Positions 1 to 19,555 of a DNA stretch of 64,000 nucleotides are shown here, piece by piece. The stretch is taken from positions 10,009 to 74,008 of the forward strand of contig CASIAE010000005.1 of the NCBI GenBank assembly GCA_949372605.1, given 5' to 3'. The DNA is from an uncultured Flavobacteriaceae bacterium. Lineage in GTDB: Bacteria > Bacteroidota > Bacteroidia > Flavobacteriales > Flavobacteriaceae. The first letter of the stretch is position 1. Every line of letters starts with the position of its first letter. Made by a program: the position numbers and the translations under genes. The notes beneath the pieces were generated by a model. That model was not told the origin of the DNA. It searched no databases and was given only the letters and a program-made list of their open reading frames with translations.

Positions 1-942
1 GCCGAAAAGGTTCTCGTTGGGATTGCCGAAGGCAAATACAACCCTAGTGAGATTGCTTCATTTTTGACGGTTTTTATGATGAGAAGCATTACACTTAAGG
101 AATTAGAAGGTTTTAGAAATGCTTTGCTAAAGCTTTGCCTTGCCATCGACCTAAGTGAATTCTCACCCATTGATCTTTGCGGAACGGGCGGAGATGGAAA
201 AGACACTTTCAATATTTCCACATTAGCATCGTTTGTAACAGCAGGAGCTGGAATCAAAGTTGCTAAACACGGAAATTATGGGGTATCATCTGGTTGTGGA
301 TCAAGTAATGTTTTAGAACATATGGGAATTAAATTTTCAAATGATGCTGACTTTTTAAAGCGATGCATTGACCAAGCGGGTATTTGTAATCTTCACGCTC
401 CATTGTTTCACCCTGCTATGAAAAACGTTGCACCCATAAGAAGAGAACTCGGCGTCAAAACATTTTTCAACATGTTAGGACCACTAGTAAATCCTTCATT
501 TCCCAAGCATCAACTAACAGGTGTTTTCAATCTCGAATTGGCCAGACTTTATGGATATCTTTTTCAGAAAACTGATCAAAACTTTACCATATTGTATGCG
601 TTGGATGGTTATGATGAAATTTCATTGACTGGACCCACCAAAGCACTACGAAATTCAGGAGAAAGTTTAATTCACCCGGAAGACTTTGGGCTTAACTCTT
701 TGGATGCCTCAGAGATTGCTGGCGGAGATAACATCTCCTCTTCTGCAAAAATTTTCAAAGAAGTTATTAAAGGGAAAGCAACTCAAGCACAACAAAATGT
801 TGTCTGTGCTAATGCAGCCATGGCAATTGCTACAGTTTTAGAATGTTCCCCAAAAGAAGGTTTTGAAAAAGCTAAAGAATCTTTACTTTCGGGAAAAGCT
901 AATCAAGCATTAATCACCCTTCAAAAACTGAGTGCTGAATGA
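1..942 (+). CDS. trpD: Anthranilate phosphoribosyltransferase TrpD (5' end outside window)
   Basis: The frame is open from base 1 (AEKVLVGIAEGKYNPSEIASF...), so ORF 64..942 is only the in-window part. Has the CGTGGDGKDTFNIST motif. Its stop overlaps the trpC start (ATGA at 939-942), and trpC-F-B-A follow. Confidence 0.9.
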   Translation, partial: AEKVLVGIAEGKYNPSEIASFLTVFMMRSITLKELEGFRNALLKLCLAIDLSEFSPIDLCGTGGDGKDTFNISTLASFVTAGAGIKVAKHGNYGVSSGCGSSNVLEHMGIKFSNDADFLKRCIDQAGICNLHAPLFHPAMKNVAPIRRELGVKTFFNMLGPLVNPSFPKHQLTGVFNLELARLYGYLFQKTDQNFTILYALDGYDEISLTGPTKALRNSGESLIHPEDFGLNSLDASEIAGGDNISSSAKIFKEVIKGKATQAQQNVVCANAAMAIATVLECSPKEGFEKAKESLLSGKANQALITLQKLSAE

Positions 943-1724
943 CAATTTTAGATAAAATTATCGCTGACAAGAATATAGAAGTCGCGCAAAGAAAAGCGTT
1001 ATTCCCAGTTTCTTTTTGGGAACAGTCCCCTTTGTTTGAAAAAGCAACTGTTTCAATTTCTGAATGTTTAAAAAACAGTACTTCGGGCATAATCGGCGAA
1101 CACAAAAGAAGATCCCCATCGCGAGAGAACATCAACAGTAGCCTTTCTATTGCTGATGTTGCCAAAGGCTATGAATCCGCTGGTGTATCGGGAATGTCTG
1201 TATTAACTGACACCAAATACTTTGGAGGTTGTTTGGGCGATCTGATCGCAGCAAGGGCAGTCACTCAATTTCCTTTGCTTAGAAAAGAATTTATTATTGA
1301 TTGTTATCAGATTCTAGAGGCAAAGGCGCATGGCGCTGATGTCATCCTTTTGATTGCAGCTGTTTTAAATAAAAATCAGATAAAAGAACTTTCTGAATTT
1401 GCTCAAAGCCTTGGACTTGAAGTTCTTCTTGAAGTTCACAATGCAGAAGAATTGGAAAAATCAATAATGCCCAGTCTGAATCTGTTGGGTGTAAATAATC
1501 GTAACTTAAAAACCTTTGAAGTTTCTCTAGAAACCAGCAAAGTATTGGCGAAGAAGATCCCAGACGATTTTATCAAAGTATCTGAAAGTGGGATTAGTGA
1601 TGTTGAATCCATTAAAGATTTGAAAAAATACGGCTATAAAGGGTTTTTGATTGGTGAGAATTTTATGAAAACTGAAAATCCAGGTGCAAGTGCAGTGGAT
1701 TTCATAAAAAAGCTTGAACAATGA
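939..1724 (+). CDS. trpC: Indole-3-glycerol phosphate synthase
   Basis: Has the LLRKEFIIDCYQILEAKAHGADVILLI motif. Sits in the trp operon with ATGA overlaps on both sides. Confidence 0.9.
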   Translation: MTILDKIIADKNIEVAQRKALFPVSFWEQSPLFEKATVSISECLKNSTSGIIGEHKRRSPSRENINSSLSIADVAKGYESAGVSGMSVLTDTKYFGGCLGDLIAARAVTQFPLLRKEFIIDCYQILEAKAHGADVILLIAAVLNKNQIKELSEFAQSLGLEVLLEVHNAEELEKSIMPSLNLLGVNNRNLKTFEVSLETSKVLAKKIPDDFIKVSESGISDVESIKDLKKYGYKGFLIGENFMKTENPGASAVDFIKKLEQ

Positions 1725-2335
1725 AGTTAAAGGTTTGTGGAATGCGAAGCCACAAAAACATTCTGGCGTTATCTGATTTAAAACCAGACTATATGGGTTT
1801 CGTTTTCTGGGAACCCTCGAAAAGGTTTGTTTCAACTACAACTCCAACACTTCCAAGCAGCATCAAAAAAACAGGAGTCTTTGTTGATGAAGCATTTGAT
1901 GAAATCAAAAGTTTAATTGAAACACATCAACTGCAGGCTATTCAGTTACACGGAAACGAAAACCCTGCTTTTTGTGATCGTTTAAAAGACTTAAACGTTG
2001 AAATCATCAAAGTTTTTTCAATAAAAAAGGATTTTGATTTTTCGGCTTTAGCCCCTTATGAAAATGTTTGTGATTATTTTTTATTTGACACCAAAGGGGA
2101 ACTTCCTGGAGGCAATGGATATGCGTTTGACTGGGAGTTATTGAAATCATATCCTTCGAGCAAGCCATTTTTCCTTAGCGGAGGAATAGGAATAGATGAC
2201 CTAGCAGACTTAGAAGATATCAGTAAATTAAATTTACCGCTTTACGCTATTGATGTAAATAGTAAATTTGAAAGCGAAGCTGGAATGAAAAAAATTGAAC
2301 TATTAAAAGATTTTAAAATCGGACTTTTTAAATAA
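1721..2335 (+). CDS. trpF: Phosphoribosylanthranilate isomerase
   Basis: N-terminal MKLKVCGM and C-terminal FLSGGI motifs. Lies between trpC and trpB. Confidence 0.9.
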   Translation: MKLKVCGMRSHKNILALSDLKPDYMGFVFWEPSKRFVSTTTPTLPSSIKKTGVFVDEAFDEIKSLIETHQLQAIQLHGNENPAFCDRLKDLNVEIIKVFSIKKDFDFSALAPYENVCDYFLFDTKGELPGGNGYAFDWELLKSYPSSKPFFLSGGIGIDDLADLEDISKLNLPLYAIDVNSKFESEAGMKKIELLKDFKIGLFK

Positions 2336-3523
2336 ATGCACATGAAGTATCAAGTAGATGAAAAAGGGTTTTATGGAGATTTTGGAGGAGCTTATATCCC
2401 TGAAATGCTTTATCCCAATGTAGAGGAATTGAGACAAAACTATTTAAAAATAACTGCAGAGCCTGAATTCAAAAAAGAATTCGATTACTTGTTAAAGGAA
2501 TATGTTGGGCGTCCGACTCCTTTATATTACGCTTCAAGACTTTCGGAAAAATACAACACTAAAATTTATCTTAAGCGCGAAGATTTGTGCCATACAGGTG
2601 CTCACAAGGTGAATAACACGATTGGACAAATTCTATTGGCAAAACGTTTGGGCAAAAACAGAATCATTGCTGAAACTGGCGCTGGTCAACACGGAGTTGC
2701 AACCGCAACTGTTTGCGCATTGATGGGTATTGAATGTATCGTTTATATGGGAGCACTTGACATTAAAAGACAAGCCCCTAATGTTGCCCGCATGAAAATG
2801 CTCGGTGCAGAAGTTAGACCTGCTCAGTCAGGTAGTAAAACTCTTAAAGATGCAACTAATGAAGCCATAAGAGACTGGATCAACAACCCAGTTAACACCC
2901 ATTATATTATAGGATCAGTTGTTGGCCCTCACCCCTATCCCGATATGGTGGCACGTTTTCAGTCTGTTATCAGTGCGGAGACCAAAACCCAATTACTAGA
3001 AAAAGAAGGTCGTGATTATCCCGATCATGTAATTGCCTGTGTAGGAGGTGGAAGTAATGCGGCAGGTTTATATTATCATTATTTAGACGATAAACGAGTT
3101 AACATCATTGCAGTAGAAGCTGCTGGAAAAGGAATTGATTCTGGAGAGAGCGCTGCAACCTCAGCACTCGGGAAAGAAGGAATTATTCATGGAAGTAAAA
3201 CCTTATTAATGCAAACTCTAGATGGTCAAATCACTGAGCCTTACTCTATTTCAGCAGGCTTAGACTATCCGGGTGTAGGTCCGATGCACGCACATCTTTT
3301 CAGATCGAAGCGGGCTGAGTTTATATCCATTCCAGATCAGGAAGCAATGGACTGGGGTCTGACGCTTTCCCAAATGGAAGGAATCATCCCAGCGATTGAA
3401 ACAGCACATGCTTTTGCAGCGCTAGATATAAGGGAGTTTAAACCAAATGAAGTCGTTGTCTTCAACTGCTCAGGAAGAGGAGACAAAGACTTAGACACCT
3501 ATATTGAATATTTCAAACTATAA
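2336..3523 (+). CDS. trpB: Tryptophan synthase beta chain
   Basis: HTGAHKVNN PLP-lysine motif and GGGSNA motif. A TAATG junction with trpA at 3521-3525. Confidence 0.95.
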   Translation: MHMKYQVDEKGFYGDFGGAYIPEMLYPNVEELRQNYLKITAEPEFKKEFDYLLKEYVGRPTPLYYASRLSEKYNTKIYLKREDLCHTGAHKVNNTIGQILLAKRLGKNRIIAETGAGQHGVATATVCALMGIECIVYMGALDIKRQAPNVARMKMLGAEVRPAQSGSKTLKDATNEAIRDWINNPVNTHYIIGSVVGPHPYPDMVARFQSVISAETKTQLLEKEGRDYPDHVIACVGGGSNAAGLYYHYLDDKRVNIIAVEAAGKGIDSGESAATSALGKEGIIHGSKTLLMQTLDGQITEPYSISAGLDYPGVGPMHAHLFRSKRAEFISIPDQEAMDWGLTLSQMEGIIPAIETAHAFAALDIREFKPNEVVVFNCSGRGDKDLDTYIEYFKL

Positions 3524-4287
3524 TGAATCGAATCGATCAAACATTTCAAGGTAATAAAAAATTATTATCCATTTATTTTTCCGCTGGACACCCCTCTCTA
3601 GAAGACACTGTCCCAATTTTAAAAGCCCTAGAAGTCTCTGGAGTGGACATGGTTGAAATAGGGTTGCCCTTCAGCGACCCGCTTGCAGATGGCCCTACCA
3701 TTCAAGAAAGCTCTACTCAAGCACTTAAAAATGGTATGACTACTGAAAAACTTTTTAATCAACTAAAAGATATCCGGAGTCACGTTAACATCCCTTTGGT
3801 ATTGATGGGATATTTCAATCCAATAATGCAATTTGGAATTGAGCGTTTTTGTGAACGATGCGCTGAGGTTGGAATCGACGGACTTATAATTCCCGATCTC
3901 CCTGTGGGTTTATATAATGAGCATTACAAATCGATTTTTCAAAAACATGGCCTTTACAACATGTTTTTAATTACTCCACAAACATCCGATGAGAGAATTA
4001 GATATATTGATCAAGTGTCAGATGGTTTTATCTATATGGTCAGTAGTGCCAGTGTAACAGGAGCCAAGTCAACTTTTGGAGACACTCAATCAGATTATTT
4101 CAAGCGTATCAATTCTATGAATTTAAAAACGCCTCAGGTGGTTGGATTTGGAATAAGCAATTCGGTTACTTATCAATTGGCGACCCAATGGAGTCGAGGA
4201 GCGATAATAGGTTCAGCATTTATTAAGTTTCTTAAAGAAAATGGGGTTCAAAAAATAAATTCCTTTGTAAAATCTATTAGGGCTTGA
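3523..4287 (+). CDS. trpA: Tryptophan synthase alpha chain
   Basis: EIGLPFSDPLADGPTIQ motif. Last gene of the trp operon. Confidence 0.95.
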   Translation: MNRIDQTFQGNKKLLSIYFSAGHPSLEDTVPILKALEVSGVDMVEIGLPFSDPLADGPTIQESSTQALKNGMTTEKLFNQLKDIRSHVNIPLVLMGYFNPIMQFGIERFCERCAEVGIDGLIIPDLPVGLYNEHYKSIFQKHGLYNMFLITPQTSDERIRYIDQVSDGFIYMVSSASVTGAKSTFGDTQSDYFKRINSMNLKTPQVVGFGISNSVTYQLATQWSRGAIIGSAFIKFLKENGVQKINSFVKSIRA

Positions 4288-4620
4288 TAATATTTTACTA
4301 AAAATATTTCTGTAAAGTCTCTTTAAAATTTACAAAAAAATGTAAAAAATTATATAAAGCTTTCAGATTGTGTCAATATTGGTTTTCAACTGAAATTATC
4401 ATTTAAGTCAATTCTGTAACTCGTTATCGAAGCTGTTAAGAGCATAGAGTTGTTTTCTTATGTATGAGGACATAATTTAGGATAGAAAACTCAAAATAAA
4501 TAGATATTCAGATGCCTATATACATAAACCACCTAACTATACTGTTATCTATTCAACTATTAACACTTATTCCCGCTTCCTTGATTTCACTTCAGGTGTA
4601 ACTTTATATAATTAAGATAA

Positions 4621-4725
4621 ATGAATAAGAAAAAAGTTATATTATATGTATCGCTTTGGGCGTTGTTGATTTCTTTAGGTGGACTTGCACAACAATACTC
4701 TGACTTTCACACCACCGTCCCTTGA
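4621..4725 (+). pseudogene. 34-codon ORF that is essentially only a Bacteroidetes-type signal peptide (MNKKKVILYVSLWALLISLGGLAQQ + 9 aa); possible 5' remnant of a truncated secreted-protein gene
   Basis: ATG at 4621, TGA at 4723-4725. It overlaps the 3' end of the convergent arsS by 19 nt. No mature domain follows the signal peptide. Confidence 0.3.
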
Positions 4726-5762
4726 CAGCTACTTCCCGATCCTGCCGTACAACCATAGCAGTGTTGTGATATACAAATTTTCCTTTCTTGCAATAGCCCT
4801 AAATTAAAATTACGCAGATGCGATATTGGACTTGCTACTTTTAAGCCTAACATCTGGTTAAAGTCACAATCATAAAGCAACCCGTCCCAGCTAACGGAAA
4901 GTGTGTTGGTACACATCAGATTGGCAACTGCTTTAGGATTAAATGCTTCAACCAAAGATGACATGTAATCCTCATAGTTTTCTGAGGCAATTAAGTAATC
5001 TAGAAAACGACTGATTGGCAAATTTGTGATTGCAAATAATTGATTAAAGTCAATATTAAAATCAATTTTTAAAGCTTTCTTAAATTCTTTTTCTAAAATC
5101 TTCTCATTTGCTGGTAAAAATGCTCCTGAGGGATTGTAAACCAAATCAAGATGTAAATTACTGTTTGACTTTCCATATCCAACAGAATTTAGAAGTTTTA
5201 AAGCAGTTATAGACTGATTAAAAACTCCATCACCTCTTTGACTATCGGTTTTATTTTTTTTATAAAAAGGTAACGAGGAAATAATATGAACTTTGTTTTG
5301 TTTAAAAAAGTGAGGAAGATTATGATATTTTTTATTGGCCATAATTATTGTCAAATTAGATCGGACAATAATCTCCTCAACATCTGTCAAACGTATCTGA
5401 GTAACAAACCAAAGAAAATCAGGATGCATTTCAGGAGCGCCTCCAGTCAAATCAATAGTTTTAACCTTTGTTTTCTTTAATACATCGAGGCACAGCTCCA
5501 TTGTTTCCCTAGACATCATTTCTTTTCGGTCTGGCCCAGCATCAACGTGACAATGAGCACAAACCTGATTACACATATAGCCAACATTAACTTGAAGAAT
5601 CTCTAGTTTTAAAGGACGAGGTGCATTGAGTTCATACGCAACCAAATTGGAGTCAAACTTTGGGAGACCTCCTTCAGAGAAAATACCATTAGAAAGTATT
5701 TCTAATTGGCGTTTAGTTGAAGACAAAAGGCTATTCCTTGCTTTTAAAGATTTGGAAACCAT
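4707..5762 (-). CDS. arsS: Arsenosugar biosynthesis radical SAM/Cys-rich protein ArsS (Cys form)
   Basis: CNQVCAHC radical-SAM CxxxCxxC triad and a Cys-rich C-terminal tail CYGCTAGSGSSCQGTVV (TGT codon, not TGA). The neighbourhood contains arsM and the associated families. Confidence 0.85.
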   Translation of the reverse strand: MVSKSLKARNSLLSSTKRQLEILSNGIFSEGGLPKFDSNLVAYELNAPRPLKLEILQVNVGYMCNQVCAHCHVDAGPDRKEMMSRETMELCLDVLKKTKVKTIDLTGGAPEMHPDFLWFVTQIRLTDVEEIIVRSNLTIIMANKKYHNLPHFFKQNKVHIISSLPFYKKNKTDSQRGDGVFNQSITALKLLNSVGYGKSNSNLHLDLVYNPSGAFLPANEKILEKEFKKALKIDFNIDFNQLFAITNLPISRFLDYLIASENYEDYMSSLVEAFNPKAVANLMCTNTLSVSWDGLLYDCDFNQMLGLKVASPISHLRNFNLGLLQERKICISQHCYGCTAGSGSSCQGTVV

Positions 5763-5763
5763 A

Positions 5764-6099
5764 TTACATACTCAATTTATCGTACACATTCATCATTTGA
5801 ACGCCATGTACCAAGGAGGCACCACTACGTATGGCTGCCCCAACATGAACCGCTTCCATCATTTCAGATTTTTCAATCCCTTTCTGCAAGCCGTCACGCG
5901 TATAAGCCTCAATACAATAAGGACACTGAACTACATGAGAGACTGCAAGAGCAATCAATGATTTTTCACGGGTACTTAGAGTCCCCTCTTTAAAAACACT
6001 ATTGTAATATTCAAAAAACTTTTCACCTAAATCTGGATTCCAATCTGTGATGTTTTTAAATTTTTTCAAATCATCACTTTTATAATAATTTCTTTTCAT
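5764..6099 (-). CDS. Arsenosugar-biosynthesis-associated peroxidase-like protein (AhpD/carboxymuconolactone decarboxylase family)
   Basis: 111 aa with a VVQCPYCIEAY CxxC motif typical of the AhpD-like fold. Lies 1 nt upstream of arsS on the same strand. Confidence 0.8.
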   Translation of the reverse strand: MKRNYYKSDDLKKFKNITDWNPDLGEKFFEYYNSVFKEGTLSTREKSLIALAVSHVVQCPYCIEAYTRDGLQKGIEKSEMMEAVHVGAAIRSGASLVHGVQMMNVYDKLSM

Positions 6100-6570
6100 G
6101 AGTTTTATTTTTTTGGCAAATAATATTAATAACGCATCTGTTTTATAAAAATAATTAATGTTGAAATCCTTGAAAATAATAACGATTTTAATATTATGAA
6201 GAAGTATTAAATACTAATTTTAAAAAATTTACAATATGACAACTTCAACATCAATTATATACTTTTGGATTATCCTCAATATCTTAAAATTGATTCTATT
6301 TCATTTTTTACTTACTTCATTGTTTTTTTTAACCATTATTTATACACAAATTACTATAAAAAAACATATAAAGTTAAGATTAGTCTCTTAGAATCACAAT
6401 CAACATATCAACAAATGAATCCATATTTAATTTTCAATATTTTAAATCGAATCTCAAGTTTATTTTTATTAGGAAAATACTTTTAATTATGATTTACACC
6501 AATGGAAAAGTGTGTGTACATTGGGGTGTTTTATGCTAAAAAACAAAGTTATTTTAAGTAAATTTATTTC

Positions 6571-7179
6571 GTGAAATCACTAATCATAGTTTTCTGTAAA
6601 AACCCAACATTGGGTGGGGTAAAATCGCGATTAGCGAAAAAGATTGGGAAACATAAAGCTTTAGAAGTCTATAACTATTTATTGGCACACACTTCAGACT
6701 GCGTAAAAGAGTCTGGTTTCTCAGCTGCCGTTTTCTACAGTGAATTCATTCCCGAGGCTGACCTTTGGGATGAAGTTGCACAATATAAAGTGCTACAAGA
6801 AGGTTCTGATTTAGGAGCAAGAATGCAACTTGCTTTTCAATGGGCTTTCAACAAAGGTTTTGAGTTTGTATTAATTATCGGAAGTGATTTATGGAGCTTA
6901 AAATCAAAGGATATTGATTTGTCATTCAAGTTACTGTTAACTCATGATGTGGTCATAGGCCCAGCAAAAGATGGTGGCTATTACTTGTTAGGATTAAAGC
7001 AATTGAGAAAAAATATTTTTAAGAACATACCTTGGAGTACTGACCAAGTTTTCAGTAAAACGTTAAATGCATTAGAAGGAAATGATGTGTTTCTTCTCGA
7101 TGAAAAAAACGATATAGATATTTTAAAAGACCTTGAAGATCATCCTGATTTATTAGAAAAAATTAGACCGCATGAATAG
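6571..7179 (+). CDS. DUF2064 / TIGR04282-type arsenosugar-associated glycosyltransferase-like protein
   Basis: GTG start. The N-terminal IIVFCKNPTLGGVKSRLA motif is typical of DUF2064. First gene of the plus-strand arsenic operon, with an 8-nt overlap onto the next gene. Confidence 0.75.
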   Translation: MKSLIIVFCKNPTLGGVKSRLAKKIGKHKALEVYNYLLAHTSDCVKESGFSAAVFYSEFIPEADLWDEVAQYKVLQEGSDLGARMQLAFQWAFNKGFEFVLIIGSDLWSLKSKDIDLSFKLLLTHDVVIGPAKDGGYYLLGLKQLRKNIFKNIPWSTDQVFSKTLNALEGNDVFLLDEKNDIDILKDLEDHPDLLEKIRPHE

Positions 7180-7990
7180 GATAGAAAAACTAAAAGAATC
7201 AATCAGATTCATTAAAAAACGAGGAATAGAATCAACTGAATTTGGAATTATTCTTGGGACAGGTCTGGGGAGAATAGTAAAAAAAATTAAACACATAATC
7301 GTTCTTGATTATGAGGAAATACCCCATTTTCCGCTAACGACACTTTCCCATGATAAAGGAAAACTGATTTACGGAACATTATTTGGAAAGAAAGTTTTGG
7401 TCTTTGATGTCCGCTTCCATCTTTATGAAGCTTATGATTTTTTTGAAATCACATATTCAGTAAGAATAATGAAACTGTTGGGAGTGAAAAATTTAGTGTT
7501 AAGTAACGCTGCTGGAGCTATCAACCTTGAATTCAAAAAAGGAGAAATTATGCTGATAGAAGATCACATCAATCTTCAAGGAGGTTCACCACTTGCAATG
7601 AAAAATATTGAGGAATTTGGAGAAAGATTTGTTGACATGAGTCAACCTTATAATCAAAAATCAATCGAAATTCTTAAAACAATCGCTAGTGAAAATGAAA
7701 TTATAATGCACCAAGGTGTTTATGTAGCCGTTGTTGGTCCTCAACTAGAAACTCCGGCGGAGTATCGCTACCTTAAAATCATTGGAGCGGATGCTGTAGG
7801 CATGTCAACAGTCCCAGAAGTCATTGTGGCCAATCAATTAAAAATACCTGTAATTGCATTTTCGGTATTGACAGATTCTTGCGACCCTGACAACCTACAA
7901 CCGATTAACATTCCTGAAATAATGGACATGGCCAAGAAAGGTGAAAATACGCTTATCTTGTTGCTAGAAAAATGGATGTCTAGAATTTAA
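7172..7990 (+). CDS. Purine nucleoside phosphorylase family protein (trimeric PNP/MTAP class) with Asp at the base-specificity position
   Basis: Aligns by eye with human PNP/PunA: GTGLG, VRFHLYE, SNAAGAIN, GPQLETPAE, GMSTVPEVIVA. The ITN(K) position reads LTD(S), giving D235 at codon 7874-7876. Confidence 0.85.
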   Translation: MNRIEKLKESIRFIKKRGIESTEFGIILGTGLGRIVKKIKHIIVLDYEEIPHFPLTTLSHDKGKLIYGTLFGKKVLVFDVRFHLYEAYDFFEITYSVRIMKLLGVKNLVLSNAAGAINLEFKKGEIMLIEDHINLQGGSPLAMKNIEEFGERFVDMSQPYNQKSIEILKTIASENEIIMHQGVYVAVVGPQLETPAEYRYLKIIGADAVGMSTVPEVIVANQLKIPVIAFSVLTDSCDPDNLQPINIPEIMDMAKKGENTLILLLEKWMSRI

Positions 7991-8010
7991 TTTATAAATT
8001 AAATGAAAAA

Positions 8011-8979
8011 ATGGAATACTTAAAAACCACACACGATGTTTATAAACAGGCTGCTATAACACCAGATTTAGGGCTCTGTTGTACGACCACTCCCCTTTGG
8101 AAATTGCCAGGTTTAACAATACCAATTCGGATGCAAGAAATGAATTACGGATGCGGAAGCACAGTACACCCAAGGGATTTAAGTGGGAATCCAAAGGTGC
8201 TTTATGTGGGTGTTGGTGGTGGAATGGAATTACTACAGTTTGCTTATTTCTCTCGAGAAAAAGGAAGAGTTGTTGGAGTTGATGTTGTAGATGAAATGTT
8301 GGAAGCTTCAAAGGAAAACTTCAAACTAGCTGAAAATGAAAACGATTGGTTTAAGTCGGATTTTGTTACACTCAAAAAAGGGGACGCTTTAAACCTTCCT
8401 GTTCCAGAGAATAGCATTGATGTAGCAGCCCAAAACTGCCTTTTTAATATTTTTAAAATGACCGAGTTGAAGCAGGCTCTAAAAGAAATGTATCGCGTAC
8501 TAAAAACAAATGGACGACTCGTAATGAGTGATCCAATCTGTGATCAGCCGATGAATGAAACCTTAAGGAATGACAATAGGTTGAGGGCCTTATGTCTATC
8601 GGGTTCCATTCCTTTAAAAGAATACATTAAAATGTTAACTGATGTTGGCTTTGGAACCATTGAAATTCGTGCCAAACGACCTTATCGCATCTTAGATCCG
8701 CTAAACTACGCTACTGAAGAATTAATTTATATTGAGAGTGTAGAAGTTTGTGCTATTAAAGATCCGATGCCAGCAGATGGACCCTGCGTTTTCACTGGAA
8801 AAACAGGAATTTATTTTGGCAGTGAAGATTATTTTGATGATGGCAATGGCCATGTGCTTTTACAAAATCAACCGCTCGCTATTTGTGATAAAACAGCGAA
8901 TTCATTGTTAGAATTAAATCGAAAAGATATTTTTATTTCACATGCAACATTCCATTACGATGGTGGAGGATGTTGCTGA
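8011..8979 (+). CDS. arsM: Arsenite S-adenosylmethionine methyltransferase, arsenosugar-cluster type
   Basis: SAM-binding VLYVGVGGGME motif, an N-terminal LCC cysteine pair, further conserved Cys residues (NYGCGS, PICDQP) and a C-terminal GGGCC. Sits in an operon with arsS-associated genes. Confidence 0.8.
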   Translation: MEYLKTTHDVYKQAAITPDLGLCCTTTPLWKLPGLTIPIRMQEMNYGCGSTVHPRDLSGNPKVLYVGVGGGMELLQFAYFSREKGRVVGVDVVDEMLEASKENFKLAENENDWFKSDFVTLKKGDALNLPVPENSIDVAAQNCLFNIFKMTELKQALKEMYRVLKTNGRLVMSDPICDQPMNETLRNDNRLRALCLSGSIPLKEYIKMLTDVGFGTIEIRAKRPYRILDPLNYATEELIYIESVEVCAIKDPMPADGPCVFTGKTGIYFGSEDYFDDGNGHVLLQNQPLAICDKTANSLLELNRKDIFISHATFHYDGGGCC

Positions 8980-8991
8980 AAATTAATTATT

Positions 8992-9687
8992 ATGCTCAAA
9001 ATCTCATTCTTATTGACCCTGTTTTTAACACTTAACTTTTCTCAAAAAAACATCCATGAAAGATGGGATAAACAGCTAAAAAAATTCGTTTCCGAAACCG
9101 GTAAAGTAAATTACAATAGTTGGAAAAATTCAATTTATGACGTTGAATCCTACCTTGAAGCTTTGAAAGATCATCCGCCACAAGAATTTTGGCCCAAAAA
9201 CGATATAATGGCTTATTGGATAAATGCTTACAATGTATTGACGGTACAATTGATCCTTCAAAACTATCCTTTAAAAAGCATAAAAGATCTTAAAGATCCA
9301 TGGGGTCGAAAGGTTATTGAAATAGAAGGCAAATCTTACAGTTTGGGTGATATAGAACATGAAGTGTTAAGAAAAATGAATGAACCAAGAATTCATTTCG
9401 CTATAAACTGTGCTTCGGTCTCTTGCCCAAAGCTTTTAAACGAGGCTTTTAATAGTTTGAAATTAGAGCAACAACTCAATCGCTTAACCTGTGATTTTTT
9501 ATCTGACAAATCCAAAAACCAACTTAATAGTAAAAAAACAATGCTTTCTAAAATTTTCATGTGGTATGTGAAAGACTTTGGTTCTTTTAATGATCGAGTT
9601 GATTTTTTTAAAAAATATGGAGATGATACTATTAATAAAGAAACAAGCTTTAGGTATTTACCCTATGATTGGAATTTAAATGAGTAA
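8992..9687 (+). CDS. DUF547 domain protein with signal peptide
   Basis: N-terminal MLKISFLLTLFLTLNFSQ signal-like segment and the hallmark HFAINCASVSCPKL motif. 12 nt after arsM, with an 8-nt overlap onto the next GT2. Confidence 0.75.
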   Translation: MLKISFLLTLFLTLNFSQKNIHERWDKQLKKFVSETGKVNYNSWKNSIYDVESYLEALKDHPPQEFWPKNDIMAYWINAYNVLTVQLILQNYPLKSIKDLKDPWGRKVIEIEGKSYSLGDIEHEVLRKMNEPRIHFAINCASVSCPKLLNEAFNSLKLEQQLNRLTCDFLSDKSKNQLNSKKTMLSKIFMWYVKDFGSFNDRVDFFKKYGDDTINKETSFRYLPYDWNLNE

Positions 9688-10363
9688 ACATCTTTCCATT
9701 ATTGTTCCAGTGTATAATGAAAGCAAGTGTATTCTTCCTTTTTTAAAACATATAAAAACCCAAGCCTCAGTAAAACACGAAATAATTGTTGTAGACGGAG
9801 AAAGTATTGACGAGAGTGTTTCTTTAATAAAAAGTCAAAAAAAAATTATCGTAATTCAAGCTAAAAAAGGACGTGCAATACAACTAAATGAGGGTGCTAA
9901 TTGTGCAAAAAATGAATGGCTTTTCTTTGTTCATGCTGACACAATACTACCGTATCATTTTGATCGATTATTGCTTGAAAACTTGAAAAACAAAAAAACA
10001 GCAAGGTGTTTTTCATTAACCTTTGATCTTGATCACTTTTTGTTAAAAATTGCAGCACTCGGAAGCCGTCTAAATATTGCTTGGTGTCGAGGAGGTGACC
10101 AGACGCTGATGGTTCACAAAGATTTATTCAGTGATCTAGGGGGATTTGATGAACATTATAACATCGCTGAAGATTTACTTTTATGCAGAAAGATTTATCG
10201 CCATGGTAACTTTGAAATTTTACCGAAATCTGTAATTACCTCTGGAAGAAAATTTTTAAAAAATGGAGTTTTCAAAACTCAACTAAGACATATAATTGTA
10301 AGAATAATGATTTTTTCAGGATTTAATTCAAATGTGGTAAATTCATGTTTTAAAAAATGGTAG
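9680..10363 (+). CDS. Family 2 glycosyltransferase, TIGR04283-type (arsenosugar-associated)
   Basis: SIIVPVYNE and IIVVDGESIDES GT-A motifs, plus FVHADT. Last gene of the tightly coupled operon. Confidence 0.75.
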   Translation: MSKHLSIIVPVYNESKCILPFLKHIKTQASVKHEIIVVDGESIDESVSLIKSQKKIIVIQAKKGRAIQLNEGANCAKNEWLFFVHADTILPYHFDRLLLENLKNKKTARCFSLTFDLDHFLLKIAALGSRLNIAWCRGGDQTLMVHKDLFSDLGGFDEHYNIAEDLLLCRKIYRHGNFEILPKSVITSGRKFLKNGVFKTQLRHIIVRIMIFSGFNSNVVNSCFKKW

Positions 10364-10494
10364 GTAACCTTTAGTTATTTAAACAAATTAAATCGTTTCA
10401 TAAATATAACCTATGTGCCTAAAAATAGATTCACAAGCATAGTTTTGCGGGAAAAAAACTAAATTTATATCAATTAATTTACTTAAATTTTTAC

Positions 10495-10899
10495 ATGATA
10501 AAAGATATCTTAAGATATAGTTTTATATCATCTCTTACAGCGCTATTCTGCTGTGTAGCCCCCTCTATTCTTTTTCTTCTAGGATTAGGTTCTGCAAGCT
10601 TTGCTTTTAGCTTCGCAGATGCGTTTTATAACATCGACGAAGATGGTGCTCCAAATATTTATTCTTGGTTTATTCGTGTGATTGGGATATTAATTATTCT
10701 TTTTGGAATTAAACAGTATAATAAAAAAGAATCTTGTAGTCTTAACTCACCTAGACAAAAGAAAATAAATAAGTTCATTTTCGGGTTAATATTAATCCTT
10801 TTTACATCATTACTATATTACGCTTGGCATTTTGGAAGCTCTTGGTTATTTGAGAATTATATTGACCCAGCTAGACAAAAAGAATATCTTGTTAAATAA
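10495..10899 (+). CDS. Small 3-TM membrane protein with a MerF/MerT-like di-cysteine in TM1
   Basis: LTALFCCVAPSILFLLGLG resembles the MerF TM1 sequence LVALCCFTPVLVILLG. TM2 is followed by a basic stretch and a Cys (KQYNKKESCS). 18 nt upstream of the next GT2. Confidence 0.6.
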   Translation: MIKDILRYSFISSLTALFCCVAPSILFLLGLGSASFAFSFADAFYNIDEDGAPNIYSWFIRVIGILIILFGIKQYNKKESCSLNSPRQKKINKFIFGLILILFTSLLYYAWHFGSSWLFENYIDPARQKEYLVK

Positions 10900-10917
10900 C
10901 AAGTCTAATCTAATAAT

Positions 10918-11616
10918 ATGCAGAAAATAGGAGTTATTATTCCGGCTTATAACGAGGCACTATCAATTAAAAAAGTAATAAACAAAATTCCTTCATTAGC
11001 TGACGAAATACTAGTAATTAATAATGGATCCACCGATGAAACTCAAATCAAAGCAATTTCTGCTGGGGCAACCGTGTTGAATGAACCTAGAAAGGGATAT
11101 GGTCACGCCTGTCTTTGCGGAATTAATTACTTCAACAACTTAACAAAACCTCCAGAAATTATCGTTTTTTTAGATGGTGACTATTCTGACTACCCTGAAG
11201 ATTTAAATGAAATAATAAAACCTATTTTAGAAGATCAGATAGATTTTGTAGTAGGTTCTCGTGTGAAAAGCAAAAGAGAAAGAGGATCAATGACACCTCA
11301 GCAAATTTTCGGAAATGAACTCGCAAGTGTATTGATAAGAATACTCTATGGTGGAAAATTTAGTGATTTAGGGCCTTTTCGCGCAATCAAACTAGAGGTA
11401 CTAAATAAGCTAGAAATGCAGGACAAAACTTATGGTTGGACGGTAGAAATGCAGCTAAAAATATTGGGGAATAAGTTTTCTTATTGTGAAGTCCCTGTTC
11501 GCTATAAAAAAAGAATCGGAAAATCAAAAGTCTCTGGAACTCTTGTAGGAACGGTCATGGCTTCTATTAAGATATTAGGATGGATTTTTAAATACTACTT
11601 TAAAAATGGAAAATAA
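10918..11616 (+). CDS. Family 2 glycosyltransferase (DPM1/GtrB-like polyprenyl-phosphate glycosyltransferase candidate)
   Basis: GVIIPAYNE and FLDGDYSD (DxD) motifs. Soluble GT-A domain of about 230 aa. Confidence 0.8.
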   Translation: MQKIGVIIPAYNEALSIKKVINKIPSLADEILVINNGSTDETQIKAISAGATVLNEPRKGYGHACLCGINYFNNLTKPPEIIVFLDGDYSDYPEDLNEIIKPILEDQIDFVVGSRVKSKRERGSMTPQQIFGNELASVLIRILYGGKFSDLGPFRAIKLEVLNKLEMQDKTYGWTVEMQLKILGNKFSYCEVPVRYKKRIGKSKVSGTLVGTVMASIKILGWIFKYYFKNGK

Positions 11617-13120
11617 TATCGAACAGTTCTCTTATTTACTTGCGATTGTTTTAATTATTATTTACAGCTTTTCGTTGTTTTTTATATTCCTTTACAGCCT
11701 ATCCCAATTGTATCTACTTAGAAACTATCTCAATTTTCAAAAGATAAAAAAAGAACTAGATCCTCCAAAAAAAATCCCTTGGGAACAACTTCCTAAGGTT
11801 ACTATTCAGCTCCCTGTTTTCAACGAAGTCTATGTGATGGAGCAGCTTTTAACAAACATTAGCGAACTTAATTACCCTAAAGAAAGATTAGAAATTCAGG
11901 TATTAGATGATTCTGATGATGAATCTGTTCCGTTAACAGATGCATTAATCTCAAAAATAAAAGAAAAGGGAATTGACATCATTCATTTAAGGCGAAAAAT
12001 CAGAACTGGTTTTAAAGCGGGTGCTTTAAAAGAAGGGCTAAAAAGTGCAAAAGGCACATTTATTGCAATTTTTGATGCTGACTTTCTACCCGAAAAAGAT
12101 TGGTTGTTGAATACAACACCTCATTTTCAAGATGAAAAAATTGGGGTAGTCCAAACTCGCTGGGGCCATCAAAATAGAAATTATTCAATATTGACTAGTG
12201 TTCAAGCCTTTGCACTAGACGCCCATTTTACTTTGGAACAAATTGGCCGTAACAGTCAGAATCATTTTATAAACTTTAATGGTACTGCTGGTATTTTGAG
12301 GAAAGAATGTATCATCGATTCCGGTAATTGGCAGGCGGATACACTAACTGAAGATCTAGACTTGAGTTACCGAGCACAGCTTCGTGGATGGAAATTTAAA
12401 TACTTAGAGGACATCATCACCCCTGCTGAACTGCCAGTTCTAATTAGTGCTGCTCGTTCACAACAATATCGATGGAACAAAGGAGGTGCCGAAACTTTTC
12501 AGAAAATGATTAAAAAAGTTTTACATTCTAAAAAAACTCCGCTTAAAACAAAACTTTATGCTTTAATGCATCTTTTAAACAGCACCATGTTTTTAAATGT
12601 TTTTATCCTAGCCATCCTAAGCATACCAATGCTTTACATAAAATACAGGTGGAGTGATTTAGGCTTGTATTTTAATCTCTTTTCAATGTTTGTTATAAGC
12701 ACATTAATTTTCTTTGTGTGTTACTGGCAAATACACAAACGGATTTACAGTAGTGGTTTTTTAAGTTTCATAAAATACATTCAAAGTTTCGTTGTTTTCT
12801 TAACACTCGCTTTGGGTTTTTCATTTCACAATTCGATTGCAGTACTTCAAGGTCATTTAGGTAAAAAAACCCCCTTTGTTAGAACTCCAAAATTCAATAA
12901 AAAATCTTTTAAAGAAACCTTACTAAAAAATAAATATAATAATCGTAAAATCTCAAAAAACACCTTAGTGGAAGGCCTTTTAGTGATTTATTTTTTATTT
13001 GGAATGTACAGTGCTTTCACCGTGGGTAAAGAAGGAGATTTTGGGTTATTCCCATTCCACCTGATGTTGTTTTGTGGCTTTGGCTATGTGTCATTACGAT
13101 CACTTATTGAAGGAAAATGA
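11606..13120 (+). CDS. Membrane-embedded processive-type family 2 glycosyltransferase (cellulose synthase/CslA/glucosyl-DAG synthase-like)
   Basis: D,D,D,QxxRW signature: VLDDSDD, FDADF, LTEDLDLS, QQYRWNKG. An N-terminal TM helix and several C-terminal TM helices. Confidence 0.8.
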   Translation: MENNIEQFSYLLAIVLIIIYSFSLFFIFLYSLSQLYLLRNYLNFQKIKKELDPPKKIPWEQLPKVTIQLPVFNEVYVMEQLLTNISELNYPKERLEIQVLDDSDDESVPLTDALISKIKEKGIDIIHLRRKIRTGFKAGALKEGLKSAKGTFIAIFDADFLPEKDWLLNTTPHFQDEKIGVVQTRWGHQNRNYSILTSVQAFALDAHFTLEQIGRNSQNHFINFNGTAGILRKECIIDSGNWQADTLTEDLDLSYRAQLRGWKFKYLEDIITPAELPVLISAARSQQYRWNKGGAETFQKMIKKVLHSKKTPLKTKLYALMHLLNSTMFLNVFILAILSIPMLYIKYRWSDLGLYFNLFSMFVISTLIFFVCYWQIHKRIYSSGFLSFIKYIQSFVVFLTLALGFSFHNSIAVLQGHLGKKTPFVRTPKFNKKSFKETLLKNKYNNRKISKNTLVEGLLVIYFLFGMYSAFTVGKEGDFGLFPFHLMLFCGFGYVSLRSLIEGK

Positions 13121-13494
13121 GCCGTAATAAATTAACATCTTATGGCTGCATAATCATCGGATTAATCTGTTATGCATACCAAGGGTATTTCATCGAAAGG
13201 TCCTCTCATCTAGAGTTGATCTCCTCTTTCGTCCTAATGTTCCTGTCCTATTTGTGGCTCCAAAAAACAAAAGAAATTAGATGGAAGGAGATTTTATGGA
13301 TCGGGATTGGTTTTCGCCTAATCTTACTTTTTTCTACCCCTTGGCTTTCTCAAGATTTTTGTAGATTTTTTTGGGATGGTGAAATTCAGCTCTTAGGTTT
13401 TAATCCCTATGAGTTTTCGCCTAATGAACTACTCTCTTCTGATCAAAAGTCTTTATTTTCAAAAACACTGTATGATGAGAATGGGAGAACTTGA
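13117..13494 (+). CDS. N-terminal fragment of a polytopic membrane protein (GT-C/DUF2029-like mannosyltransferase candidate)
   Basis: TM helices plus WLSQDFCRFFWDGEIQLLGFNPY. ATGA-coupled to the upstream GT2. Ends at TGA 13492-13494, only 4 nt into the next ORF. Confidence 0.55.
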   Translation: MSRNKLTSYGCIIIGLICYAYQGYFIERSSHLELISSFVLMFLSYLWLQKTKEIRWKEILWIGIGFRLILLFSTPWLSQDFCRFFWDGEIQLLGFNPYEFSPNELLSSDQKSLFSKTLYDENGRT

Positions 13495-14450
13495 GTCAAT
13501 CTAATTACTCCAATTATCCCCCAGTGAGTCAATGGCTTTTTACTGTTTTGGCATTTGTAAGTAATGGGAAGTTATTTCCCATGATTATAGGACTCCGGCT
13601 CGTTCATATTGTTGCCGATGTTGGATTGTTTTTTATTGGAACAAAACTGTTAAAAAAATTAAAACTTCCTAAGAAAAACATCGGATGGTATTTCTTAAAT
13701 CCATTGGTCATCGTTGAGCTGATCGGTAATTTACATGGTGAAGGTCTGATGTTGCTTTTTCTTCTTTTTGCGGTGTTTATGCTAACTGAGAATCGGCTGC
13801 TCATTGCTGGTATTTTCATGGCGATGGGTGTCGGTGCAAAATTAATTCCACTTTTCTTTTTATTGATTTTAATCTACCCTCAGAAATGGAAAGATCGTTT
13901 TTGTTTTCTTGGAAGTGTTGGCTTCTCCTCTCTGGTGATTTGGGGGCCCTATTTGTCGGTTTTAATGGGAGGGAATTACTGGGTAACCATAAGGCTTTGG
14001 TTTGATACTTTTGAATTTAACGGCAGTATTTACAACTTAATCCGATCCGTGGGCTATCAAATCAGAGGTTATAATGTCATTAAAATAATTGGAAAGTTTA
14101 CGCCTTTCGTTGTAATGGGAATGGTGTTTGTTTTTTCTGTTGTAAAGAAAAACGACACCCTGTCAAGACGTTTTAAAAGCATGTTGTTTCTCATCACCGC
14201 CTATCTGTTTATAAGCACAACCGTCCACCCATGGTATGTGATCACTCCTTTACTATTTGGTGTTTTCACAAACTATCGATTTGCATTGTTATGGACGGCA
14301 ACAGTCACCTTAAGCTATACCAGCTACGGAATACATGAGGTTTATACGAGTCCACTAATCTTATTTCTAGAATACTTACCCGTTTATCTGCTCTTAATTT
14401 TAGAGGTAAGTGGAAAAGACAATCGCATCAAAGCATTTGTAAGAAGTTAA
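13491..14450 (+). CDS. C-terminal part of the same polytopic membrane protein (apparent frameshift split)
   Basis: Begins at TTG 13491 with no ATG for 30 codons. SNYPPVSQW is followed by at least 8 hydrophobic helices. This frame opens only at 13479. Confidence 0.55.
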   Translation: MSQSNYSNYPPVSQWLFTVLAFVSNGKLFPMIIGLRLVHIVADVGLFFIGTKLLKKLKLPKKNIGWYFLNPLVIVELIGNLHGEGLMLLFLLFAVFMLTENRLLIAGIFMAMGVGAKLIPLFFLLILIYPQKWKDRFCFLGSVGFSSLVIWGPYLSVLMGGNYWVTIRLWFDTFEFNGSIYNLIRSVGYQIRGYNVIKIIGKFTPFVVMGMVFVFSVVKKNDTLSRRFKSMLFLITAYLFISTTVHPWYVITPLLFGVFTNYRFALLWTATVTLSYTSYGIHEVYTSPLILFLEYLPVYLLLILEVSGKDNRIKAFVRS

Positions 14451-15192
14451 CTTCTTTGAGGGTAAGTTTCCTCCAATTACCTCTAGGTAAATCCTTTTTT
14501 GTTAAACCAGCAAAAAGCATCCTGTCCATTTGTAAAACTTCAAATTCTAATTTTTCTAACATCTTAGTTAATGTACCTGGAGTCAAATTATAAGCTTCTA
14601 TTCCAATTTCACGCTTGGTTCCACCTTTTTTGTACTCAACATCTTTAACTTGATATACAAAACCCCTAAGACCAATTCCGCTTTTAAGCATCTCTATTTT
14701 GGCAGCACTTATGCTTTTATCCAAAACAACCTGATAAACCATTGCGGTTTTCTTTTGAGCATTATTAAGCTTTTTCCTCAGAGCGTCGTCATTAGTAAAA
14801 AACAATAAACCTGTAATTGGTCTGCCCATATCCCCAATCGGTGAGACATTTTCTGGGTGTGCATTACGAATTAAATCTTGAACAGACTTCTTAACAACTC
14901 CACCTTGAGCCGTTGCAACAAAGCCTTTTGGTTTATTGAGTAAAAGATAAATTGGTTCACTTGCTCTTACTCGTTGTCCATCATATTTAACCTCATCACC
15001 TGGGTTTACTTGGTACCCCATTTCTGTGACAATTTTCCCATTGACCGAAACCAGCCCCATTGCAATATGCTGATCGGCTTCTCTACGAGAACAAAGTCCT
15101 GCATTGGAAAGGTATTTATTCAGTCTTTTAACTGTTTTACCTCCTCGGTTTAAATTGTCGCTATCTGACTTCTTTTTTGGATTATATCGCAC
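14428..15192 (-). CDS. S4-domain pseudouridine synthase homolog (RsuA/RluB family) lacking the catalytic Asp
   Basis: S4 motif LNKYLSNAGLCSRREAD and LLLNKPKGFV. The catalytic loop reads PIGDMGRPITGLLFFTNDD where the family has GR(L/M)DxxTxGLL. GTG start. Confidence 0.75.
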   Translation of the reverse strand: MRYNPKKKSDSDNLNRGGKTVKRLNKYLSNAGLCSRREADQHIAMGLVSVNGKIVTEMGYQVNPGDEVKYDGQRVRASEPIYLLLNKPKGFVATAQGGVVKKSVQDLIRNAHPENVSPIGDMGRPITGLLFFTNDDALRKKLNNAQKKTAMVYQVVLDKSISAAKIEMLKSGIGLRGFVYQVKDVEYKKGGTKREIGIEAYNLTPGTLTKMLEKLEFEVLQMDRMLFAGLTKKDLPRGNWRKLTLKEVNFLQML

Positions 15193-15204
15193 GTTGAGAA
15201 TTTA

Positions 15205-16086
15205 TTATTTGTACATGAAATAGATGCCTATGACTCCTAAAAAAATTAAAACCTTAAGCAAATTATGAATCCAAAGATACATCTTTTGAGTCGATCCTTT
15301 CCAGAGTAACACAAGAACAAAAAGCATATACGGAATTGAGAAGTAGAAGTAATAAGTCATCAATCCTAAGTGGCTTTGAATCAAAAGATAAATCGGAATA
15401 GAATTTAAAAAAATCAAGGCTGAAACTATTGTTTTTGTTTTAAGATTACCAAATACAATTGGTAGGGTTTGATAGCTCTGCACCCAGTCTCCCTTATAGT
15501 TTTGAAGATCCTTTACGATGTCACGAATTAAAATCAATAAAAATAAAAAACTCGCATGATAGATTACAACGGATTCGAAATTTTTAAAATAAATAGTAAC
15601 TGCAAAAAAAGGAATAATCGCCAAAAGTGTAGCAAAAAGATTACTGATCCAAAAAAGACGTTTTAAGCTACTGCTATATATCCATATACCAAAAATGTAT
15701 ACAGTAAAGAATAAAATTGCCTTAAAAGAAGCTGCACCAGCAATAATTAATGTAGCTCCGTTGAGAAGAAAGTACAAGACTAGCTGACTTTGCTGAGACA
15801 ACAAGTGTTCTAATAAGAATTTTTTTGGTCTATTGATTTTATCTTTTTCAGCATCATAAAAATTATTTATAATATAACCGGCAGCTGTTGAAAAGGCAGT
15901 CGCTAAGACCAAATAAAAAAGTTTAAGATTGAAAAGAATTTCATAAAATGTACTCGAGGGGGCAAGGATATAACGTGAGGTCAGGTATTGAGCAAGGATC
16001 AATACAACAATATTGTATCCCCTTACCAAACTAAATAATCCGAATATTTTGATTGCTAATCGCTGATGTGATCTAGAGACTGGCAT
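15205..16086 (-). CDS. UbiA-superfamily prenyltransferase (DGGGP-synthase-like)
   Basis: NNFYDAEKDKIN (NxxxDxxxD) motif and about 8-9 TM helices. Directly downstream of the mevalonate genes. Confidence 0.85.
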   Translation of the reverse strand: MPVSRSHQRLAIKIFGLFSLVRGYNIVVLILAQYLTSRYILAPSSTFYEILFNLKLFYLVLATAFSTAAGYIINNFYDAEKDKINRPKKFLLEHLLSQQSQLVLYFLLNGATLIIAGAASFKAILFFTVYIFGIWIYSSSLKRLFWISNLFATLLAIIPFFAVTIYFKNFESVVIYHASFLFLLILIRDIVKDLQNYKGDWVQSYQTLPIVFGNLKTKTIVSALIFLNSIPIYLLIQSHLGLMTYYFYFSIPYMLFVLVLLWKGSTQKMYLWIHNLLKVLIFLGVIGIYFMYK

Positions 16087-16094
16087 GAAAGGCT

Positions 16095-17024: not shown

Positions 17025-17033
17025 GAATCTAAA

Positions 17034-18107: not shown

Positions 18108-18181
18108 CGAATACAAATATAAGCTTTTGAACTTCTTATTGAAAAGCATTAAAAGCTTAATTATTTAGGTTAGCTTTGAGT

Positions 18182-18664: not shown

Positions 18665-19232
18665 AATAAGTTAATTTTAAAGTATTTTCGTAACTTAACA
18701 TGTAATTCAAGCCTTAAATTAAAATTATTTTTTTTTAAATCAACTTTAGCAGAAATCTCTTCATCAGTTTCATTTTTCTGTTTTTTGTTCGTTAGTATTT
18801 CTTAAACATCATGGCCATAAATTATTTTCTAATCACACGATAAATATACCTTTTAAAGTAAAAGTTAGAATGGGATTAATTGCCTTTGGTGTCTTGTTTA
18901 TATCATATATTGTTTCATTGCTTTACGGTAATTGGTCGAGGAGAATTACAGCATAAAATCAGGTTTTAATATAGGCGCATTGATCGATTTTTTGTTTGAT
19001 TCGGAATTGGTCATTTCGCCTATGAAACTTCAAACCTAATGAATCTATAAGATTCTTTAGCAGATGCTGTTTGCAGCTTTTTATATCATTGTATTACAGT
19101 AGTATTGATCGTTTTAATTTACAAGATATTGAATCCATTAAAAAAAATAGTTTAAGGTTGGCTTAATAGTAGAAAAAACAGGAAGTGAAGGAGTTTTATC
19201 ACAATATTTTCTTTAAATAATCTAAGAATAAT

Positions 19233-19553: not shown

Positions 19554-19555
19554 TT

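Follow-up and report, generated by a model that had tools for sequence, protein, structure and literature searches.

An arsS/arsM gene cluster in an uncultured Flavobacteriaceae bacterium and a proposed nucleoside phosphorylase route to arsenosugars

Arsenosugars are the chief organic arsenic species in marine food webs, and two enzymes of the pathway leading to them are known, ArsM and ArsS. ArsM homologues methylate As(III) to dimethylarsenite, and ArsS homologues cleave S-adenosylmethionine (SAM) reductively and join the 5'-deoxyadenosyl radical to dimethylarsenite, giving dimethylarsinoyl-adenosine (DDMAA), after which adenine is stated to be removed (PMC13598754; bioRxiv 10.64898/2026.04.29.721666). 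In Synechocystis, arsS and arsM are co-transcribed and belong to the arsenosugar pathway (Xue et al. 2017, 2019, as described in the papers that cite them). Here, we analysed a related locus in a 64,000 nt stretch of DNA (the window) from an uncultured Flavobacteriaceae bacterium (GCA_949372605.1, contig CASIAE010000005.1, positions 10,009-74,008, forward strand). Seven genes, at window positions 4707-10363, encode ArsS, an AhpD-like CxxC protein, a DUF2064 protein, a purine nucleoside phosphorylase (PNP), ArsM, a DUF547 protein and a family 2 glycosyltransferase (GT2). An earlier annotation made from the DNA letters (the original prediction) stated that the steps beyond ArsM and ArsS are biochemically unassigned. 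This agrees with the literature searched, which assigns only those two steps and leaves both the loss of adenine from the adenosyl intermediate and the formation of the riboside bond unassigned. A search of the literature for the later steps of the pathway, for DUF2064/TIGR04282 and for Bacteroidetes arsenosugars found nothing relevant.

The locus is very likely a genuine and typical marine-flavobacterial arsS/arsM cluster of the arsenosugar type. Our reading, to which we give a probability of about 60 %, is that it is a chromosomal, Bacteroidota-type cluster that turns arsenite into dimethylarsinoyl-ribosides by a route through the PNP, the DUF2064 protein and the GT2. ArsM and ArsS would convert arsenite to dimethylarsenite and then to DDMAA. 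The PNP would phosphorolyse DDMAA to adenine and 5-deoxy-5-dimethylarsinoyl-alpha-D-ribose-1-phosphate, and the CofC-like DUF2064 protein, which is translationally coupled to the PNP, would condense this sugar-1-phosphate with a nucleoside triphosphate (NTP) to form a nucleoside diphosphate (NDP)-arsenoribose. The inverting GT2 would then move the arsenoribose to an alcohol, which could be glycerol, glycerol phosphate or a lipid, yielding the beta-riboside. The AhpD-like protein may provide thiol reducing power that keeps arsenic or ArsM reduced, and the exported DUF547 protein, with its invariant Cys pair, may perform a thiol or arsenic step outside the cytoplasm.

Phosphorolysis yields an alpha-1-phosphate, nucleotidyl transfer retains the configuration and GT2 enzymes invert it to beta. 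As natural arsenosugars are beta-ribosides, the proposed order is stereochemically consistent. That the PNP and the DUF2064 protein act in the pathway at all is, in our judgement, probable. The exact order, PNP followed by nucleotidylyltransferase followed by GT2, is more tentative and falls somewhat short of even odds.

The open reading frame (ORF) list reproduced all seven gene coordinates of the original prediction, together with its overlaps, gaps and divergent spacer. arsS (4707-5762) and, 1 nt away, the AhpD-like gene (5764-6099) are on the minus strand, and the other five genes are on the plus strand. The DUF2064 gene (6571-7179) has a GTG start and overlaps the PNP gene (7172-7990) by 8 nt. 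arsM (8011-8979) follows after a 20 nt gap and the DUF547 gene (8992-9687) after a further 12 nt, and the latter overlaps the GT2 gene (9680-10363) by 8 nt.

Families were called using NCBIfam profiles with their curated cut-offs, and Pfam for DUF547. ArsS, a radical-SAM enzyme, scored 430.8 bits against TIGR04167 (cut-off 300), covering model positions 6-302 of 303, and Pfam recognised Radical_SAM and DUF3641 (PF12345, E 2.4e-52). The cysteines of its CX3CX2C motif (CNQVCAHC; C64, C68 and C71) and C284, C299, C335, C338 and C346 are invariant in 82 of 82 sequences. From the activity of its homologues, we infer that the window ArsS adenosylates dimethylarsenite to DDMAA. ArsM scored 556.5 bits against NF038099, the arsenosugar ArsM model (cut-off 400; model positions 2-321 of 321), and the cysteines at 23/24, 48, 143, 195, 259, 292 and 321/322 are present in every one of 40 sequences. 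The AhpD-like protein scored 190.4 bits against TIGR04169 (cut-off 120). Its C59-P-Y-C62 motif, which like CNQVCAHC had been picked out in the original prediction (as QCPYC), is shared by at least 95 % of the 79 sequences compared. NCBIfam includes a family of ArsM/AhpD fusions (NF041537), which points to the AhpD-like protein as a thiol-redox helper of ArsM, and it is probably a thiol-disulfide oxidoreductase serving ArsM/ArsS.

The DUF2064 protein scored 189 bits against TIGR04282 (cut-off 134), with weaker CofC matches, and it matches PDB entry 3cgx, a 'putative nucleotide-diphospho-sugar transferase' (E 4e-20). K18, R20, D106, D134-G-G-Y, D181, D183 and D187 are at least 95 % conserved among 54 sequences. 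Such features are those of nucleotidyltransferases, which couple an NTP to a phosphate monoester, and we propose the protein as a candidate sugar-1-phosphate nucleotidylyltransferase. The GT2, of the inverting type, scored 216.9 bits against TIGR04283 (cut-off 182), and D39, D44, H85-A-D87, D140 and E164-D165 are at least 95 % conserved among 29 sequences, with the DxD-like and ED motifs kept. It is proposed here as a candidate arsenoribosyl transferase. With these two, all five families for which arsenosugar models were named (ArsS, AhpD-like, ArsM, DUF2064 and GT2) exceed the curated cut-offs.

The PNP belongs to the general trimeric PNP family (NF006054/PF01048), scoring 312.6 bits against NF006054 (cut-off 218). 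Against the inosine/guanosine-specific model TIGR01700 it scored 275 bits, below the cut-off of 293.35, and against the methylthioadenosine phosphorylase (MTAP/MtnP) model TIGR01694 it scored 80.5 bits, far below the cut-off of 274.85. The nearest solved structures, 4LNA (Spirosoma) and 4M1E (Planctomyces), were each deposited simply as PNP. Residues are numbered here according to human PNP, the alignment reference, the sequence of which was checked to be identical to that of 1ULA. The phosphate and ribose ligands R84, H86, Y88, E201, M219 and S220 are retained in 48 of 48 cluster PNPs, and the likeness to human PNP and MTAP extends to the trimeric fold family shared by all of them. In all of the same 48 sequences, S33 is replaced by Thr, F200 by Leu, N243 by Asp and H257 by Ile, Val or Leu; in the window protein these residues are T30, L192, D235 and I247.

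Asn243 is the residue by which PNP picks 6-oxopurines, and its counterpart in MTAP, Asp220, is the one that picks adenine. His257 is the ligand of the 5'-OH in PNP, and MTAP has a hydrophobic pocket there. At both places the cluster PNPs resemble MTAP: the position that selects adenine is an Asp, and the one that holds the 5'-OH in PNP is hydrophobic. With these two replacements the enzyme seems fitted to adenine nucleosides that are altered at the 5' position, and DDMAA is a compound of this kind. Two more specific identities were rejected. A canonical 6-oxopurine PNP does not fit because TIGR01700 was not reached and Asp235 and Ile247 replace Asn243 and His257. MTAP/MtnP does not fit because TIGR01694 was not reached and the likeness to MTAP is limited to the base and 5'-pocket positions.

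The cluster PNPs are one clade within a broader adenine-type subfamily. This broad trimeric subfamily, in which Thr33, Leu200, Asp243 and a hydrophobic residue at 257 replace Ser, Phe or Tyr, Asn and His, includes 4LNA, 4M1E and the PNPs of our loci L086, L087 and L111-L167. The replacements suggest that its members may prefer adenine or 5'-modified nucleosides, unlike what their database names imply.

Conservation was assessed in a scan of species-representative genomes for the 80 loci closest to the window ArsS, all of them from Bacteroidota and with 57-70 % ArsS identity. These loci were searched with the window proteins. The counts cover flanks up to 10 kb only, with many contigs cut, and cyanobacterial and other clusters are outside their scope. 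The AhpD-like gene was found in 77 of the 80 loci, adjoining arsS in all 77. The DUF2064 gene was present in 52, the PNP gene in 45, arsM in 38, the DUF547 gene in 33 and the GT2 (TIGR04283) gene in 27. PNP adjoins DUF2064, defined as lying within 200 bp, in 41 of 45 loci, and this linkage persists through rearrangements in Chitinophagales (L074, L079 and L083). DUF547 adjoins GT2 in 23 of 33 loci, and the DUF2064-PNP and DUF547-GT2 pairs fit a two-module picture. Where at least 8 kb of flank was available on each side (52 loci), all five genes that are on the plus strand in the window were found in 15.

The usual order, on one strand, is AhpD-ArsS-DUF2064-PNP-ArsM-DUF547-GT2. A widespread lineage of Flavobacteriaceae (70 % ArsS identity), represented by >140 contigs that include Tara samples, has all seven genes colinear in this order. 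Relative to the common Flavobacteriaceae cluster (e.g. L002-L006 and L008; 57-70 % ArsS identity), the window has the same seven families and the same DUF2064-PNP-ArsM-DUF547-GT2 order, but its AhpD-ArsS pair is inverted, with the 471 bp spacer between. The divergent arrangement, also seen in L001 and L018, is a minor rearrangement found in a minority of loci.

The locus is therefore an ordinary one: five of its seven genes are already named as arsenosugar-associated in NCBI models, and it has the commonest Flavobacteriaceae layout apart from the inversion. The family matches go far beyond what chance would give, and dozens of species share this gene set. The above-threshold models and the gene set conserved in other arsS-positive genomes bear out the arsenosugar-type arsS/arsM cluster of the original prediction. 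The original prediction had also counted three genes as extras to the usual pathway, namely PNP, DUF547 and a downstream MerF-like gene. The first two do travel with arsS, in 45 and 33 of the 80 loci, and are regular parts of the common Flavobacteriaceae arrangement rather than unusual additions to it. The MerF-like gene, found in only 2 of the 80 loci, probably does not belong with them.

The main rival to a DDMAA phosphorylase is that the PNP salvages adenine from 5'-deoxyadenosine released by abortive SAM cleavage by ArsS, from 5'-methylthioadenosine (MTA) or from adenosine. We consider this unlikely, though it merits more weight than any other alternative. The same estimate covers a cluster that makes DDMAA or methylated arsenic, with DUF2064 and GT2 using another substrate and adenine leaving DDMAA in some other way. 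Several findings favour it and weigh against the proposed route. The residue signature of the cluster PNPs is carried by all 120 of the 4LNA relatives from Spirosoma and related bacteria. Two of these were checked for context, and both are stand-alone genes that lack any ars gene within 8 kb. As this Thr/Leu/Asp/hydrophobic type is widespread as a stand-alone gene without ars context, the signature was rejected as proof of DDMAA specificity, and the MTAP-like features suit 5'-deoxyadenosine and MTA equally with DDMAA. Among more distant Asp-type metagenomic PNP loci, 56 of 57 lack ars neighbours, so the enzyme could act generally as a phosphorylase of adenosine, MTA or 5'-deoxyadenosine. Fusions of PNP with DUF2064 were not found among the 150 closest representative PNP relatives, where the only fusions are with nucleoside catabolism enzymes (DeoC, DeoB or a second nucleoside-phosphorylase domain that is DeoD/uridine-phosphorylase-like).

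Other points on the same side come from the arsS loci and from the chemistry. About 40 % of the arsS loci have no PNP within 10 kb, Cytophagales loci without a nearby PNP among them, and 10 of the 52 loci for which both flanks reach at least 8 kb have none of the five plus-strand genes near AhpD-ArsS. The literature searched reports no arsenic product from any flavobacterium, and we know of no precedent for an NDP-ribofuranose donor. The role given to the DUF547 protein is a guess, as it has no fold relative in the PDB.

The linkage of the genes argues for the proposed route. A clean-up enzyme needs no translational coupling to DUF2064, yet the two genes are adjacent in 41 of the 45 loci that have a PNP and remain so when the surrounding genes are rearranged. 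In a metagenome scan that started from the PNP, 21 of the 23 closest loci were informative and 20 of these adjoined DUF2064, ArsS or ArsM, so that the closest PNP clade is nearly always found inside ars clusters. The seven-gene set also offers no other candidate for the removal of adenine. As the signature is shared with stand-alone relatives, gene linkage is the stronger argument of the two.

A second alternative, which we regard as improbable, is that DUF2064, DUF547 and GT2 form an envelope-glycan or glycolipid pathway together with the glycosyltransferases encoded downstream and merely neighbour arsM/arsS, two operons having been joined by synteny. The genes from 6571 to 14450 are indeed all on one strand with short gaps, and the first of the downstream glycosyltransferases, a 232-aa GT2, is encoded within 10 kb of arsS in 10 of the 80 loci, including two from Pontibacter (Cytophagales), where its orientation is opposite. 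However, TIGR04282 (52 loci) and TIGR04283 (27 loci) accompany arsS in many loci that lack the downstream module, which is found in 10. Both in the window and in most flavobacterial loci, ArsM is the central member of the DUF2064-PNP-ArsM-DUF547-GT2 series, and NCBI curators name both TIGR04282 and TIGR04283 as arsenosugar-associated. Least probable of all, and very improbable in our view, is a substrate that is another metalloid or contains no arsenic (e.g. selenium or antimony), with the arsenic names a product of transferred annotation. TIGR04169 and TIGR04282 are 'hypothetical equivalog' models in NCBIfam and no arsenic resistance genes were seen nearby, but ArsM has every conserved Cys and fits the model specific to arsenosugars from end to end, and biochemical work on the ArsS family has been done with dimethylarsenite.

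The DUF547 protein was recognised only by Pfam (PF04784, 92 bits, cut-off 27). It has a hydrophobic signal or anchor at the N-terminus and a motif, I134-H135 ... C140-A-S-x-S-C-P146, that at least 95 % of 35 cluster sequences share; in a set of 31 sequences, R133 and N139 do not vary either. Its AlphaFold2 model has a pLDDT of 92.8. A search of the PDB with this fold found no match (best E 0.73, TM 0.28), and neither did a profile search of PDB sequences. The sole functional hint comes from plant class IV glutaredoxins, in which a glutaredoxin-DEP unit is fused to DUF547 (PMC13621322). That the protein handles a thiol or arsenic outside the cytoplasm is the least certain of the functional assignments made here.

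In the original prediction the locus was described as an island. Its GC content is 0.33-0.34, compared with 0.36 for the window, no tRNA was found by a search of window positions 1-20000 and the genes that were called or scanned near the locus include no integrase- or transposase-like product. The cluster sits between the trp operon and glycosyltransferase genes, flanks described as housekeeping genes, and a relative with 96.7 % identity (L001) has the same layout and the same flanks, including the trp operon. Together with the family-wide gene set, these observations give no support to a horizontally acquired island. The absence of arsR, acr3 and arsC, also claimed, holds for the locus and for ten size-matched window ORFs that were scanned, a search that was not exhaustive.

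The spacer between the divergent transcription directions (6100-6570, 471 bp) is AT-rich, with a GC content of 0.20 (20 %), and is presumed to hold promoters for both. A search of the spacer against Rfam matched no family, a repeat search found only AT-rich chance repeats, and scans for sigma-70 and Bacteroidetes -7 consensus sequences found motifs at or below chance. A 13-codon upstream ORF at 6533-6574 (MLKNKVILSKFIS) ends in a TGA that overlaps the GTG start of DUF2064 (GTGA). This overlap may be a coupling device or may be due to chance in AT-rich sequence.

Downstream of the seven genes, the ORF at 10495-10899 (plus strand) encodes a small membrane protein, the first helix of which contains a Cys-Cys pair. 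This protein scored 15.8 bits against the Pfam MerT model (cut-off 32.9, E 0.015), and a MerF/MerT mercury transporter was rejected because this score is sub-threshold and the protein shares only the Cys-Cys-x-x-Pro of the first helix, which is kept in its orthologues. Models of anti-phage defence did not match this protein, the DUF547 protein or the AhpD-like protein. In the 2 of 80 loci that have the gene, and in L001, it is always directly upstream of the gene for the 232-aa GT2; in other flavobacteria its position is taken by an oxidoreductase and a polyferredoxin. The MerF-like gene is thus probably outside the arsenic set and goes with the glycosyltransferase module that follows.

This module (10918-14450, plus strand) encodes the 232-aa GT2, which is Dpm1/AglJ-like, a 504-aa membrane GT2 and a GT87-like protein. 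The 504-aa GT2 passes the threshold in 8 of the 80 loci and the GT87 gene is found in 5. A module of this type (232-aa GT2, approximately 500-aa membrane GT2 and GT87/GT-C) is also present at L002, L006, L008, L015, L027, L032, L040, L042, L053, L073 and L077. Its position near arsS could reflect conserved synteny or a functional link, e.g. polyprenyl-phosphate-linked export. The 131 nt gap at 10364-10494 is the only sizeable one in the plus-strand run and holds a Bacteroidetes-type -7 motif (TAGTTTTG) at 10440-10447, 48 nt upstream of the MerF-like ORF. The motif would be in keeping with a downstream module that is transcribed separately, but it occurs at chance frequency across the window. 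The GT87-like gene (13117-14450) is split in the window into ORFs of 125 and 319 aa by two single-base insertions, near 13478 and 13490, relative to L001, where it is a single 443-aa gene (1318-2649). Conversely, arsM of L001 is split by a 1 nt deletion at the position corresponding to window 8374. These frameshifts could represent pseudogenisation or assembly errors.

Accessory genes are found in other Bacteroidota arsS clusters (L009-L064). A secreted rhodanese of approximately 165 aa is encoded between ArsS and DUF2064 in 27 loci, a second DUF2064 paralogue is present in 16 and an FA_hydroxylase-type membrane protein is encoded between ArsM and DUF547 in 15. Less frequent are a 12-helix transporter (8 loci), a TetR protein (7), metallophosphoesterases (7 and 5) and a PiT-like transporter (4). 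The window has none of these accessory genes, examples of which are found in L047 (11204-11737), L039 (14092-14997) and L035 (11068-11781).

The compact seven-gene form and the comparative data single out the PNP, the DUF2064 protein and the GT2, with an order of action that can be tested, and the set fits in a 5.7-kb construct. Such clusters are common in heterotrophic marine Flavobacteriaceae, which bears on who makes arsenosugars at sea. A wider and more speculative proposal, to which we would give rather less credence than to the order of the three enzymes, is that marine Flavobacteriaceae and other Bacteroidota make arsenosugars via NDP-5-deoxy-5-dimethylarsinoyl-ribose, formed by a dedicated DDMAA phosphorylase and DUF2064 and used by the TIGR04283 GT2. 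If so, NDP-arsenoribose would be a class of nucleotide sugar not previously described, and the missing half of the arsenosugar pathway would be carried by abundant heterotrophic bacteria of the ocean, not only by algae and cyanobacteria. A further possibility is a hand-over to the polyprenyl-phosphate-type GT2 and GT87 module and to DUF547, with display on envelope lipids.

Compared with the arsM-arsS pair of Synechocystis sp. PCC 6803, the window has the same two founding enzymes, again linked, with an ArsS of TIGR04167 that has the CX3CX2C motif and a Cys-rich C-terminus and an ArsM in which the Cys are conserved. It differs in that the pair is embedded with five further conserved genes, that its ArsM falls in the separate 'arsenosugar ArsM' model NF038099, and that the host is a heterotrophic flavobacterium in which the pathway is known from genes alone. 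For the proposed activation step, the closest described enzyme is CofC, the 2-phospho-L-lactate guanylyltransferase of F420 synthesis. The DUF2064 protein matches CofC models and keeps the K/R and Asp motifs, although its score of 34.9 bits is below the CofC cut-off of 105. The logic proposed for the arsenosugar cluster is also that of CofC and its downstream transferase, i.e. a phosphate monoester is activated with an NTP and then transferred, but here the substrate of DUF2064 would be a furanose-1-phosphate and its partner would be a GT2, not CofD.

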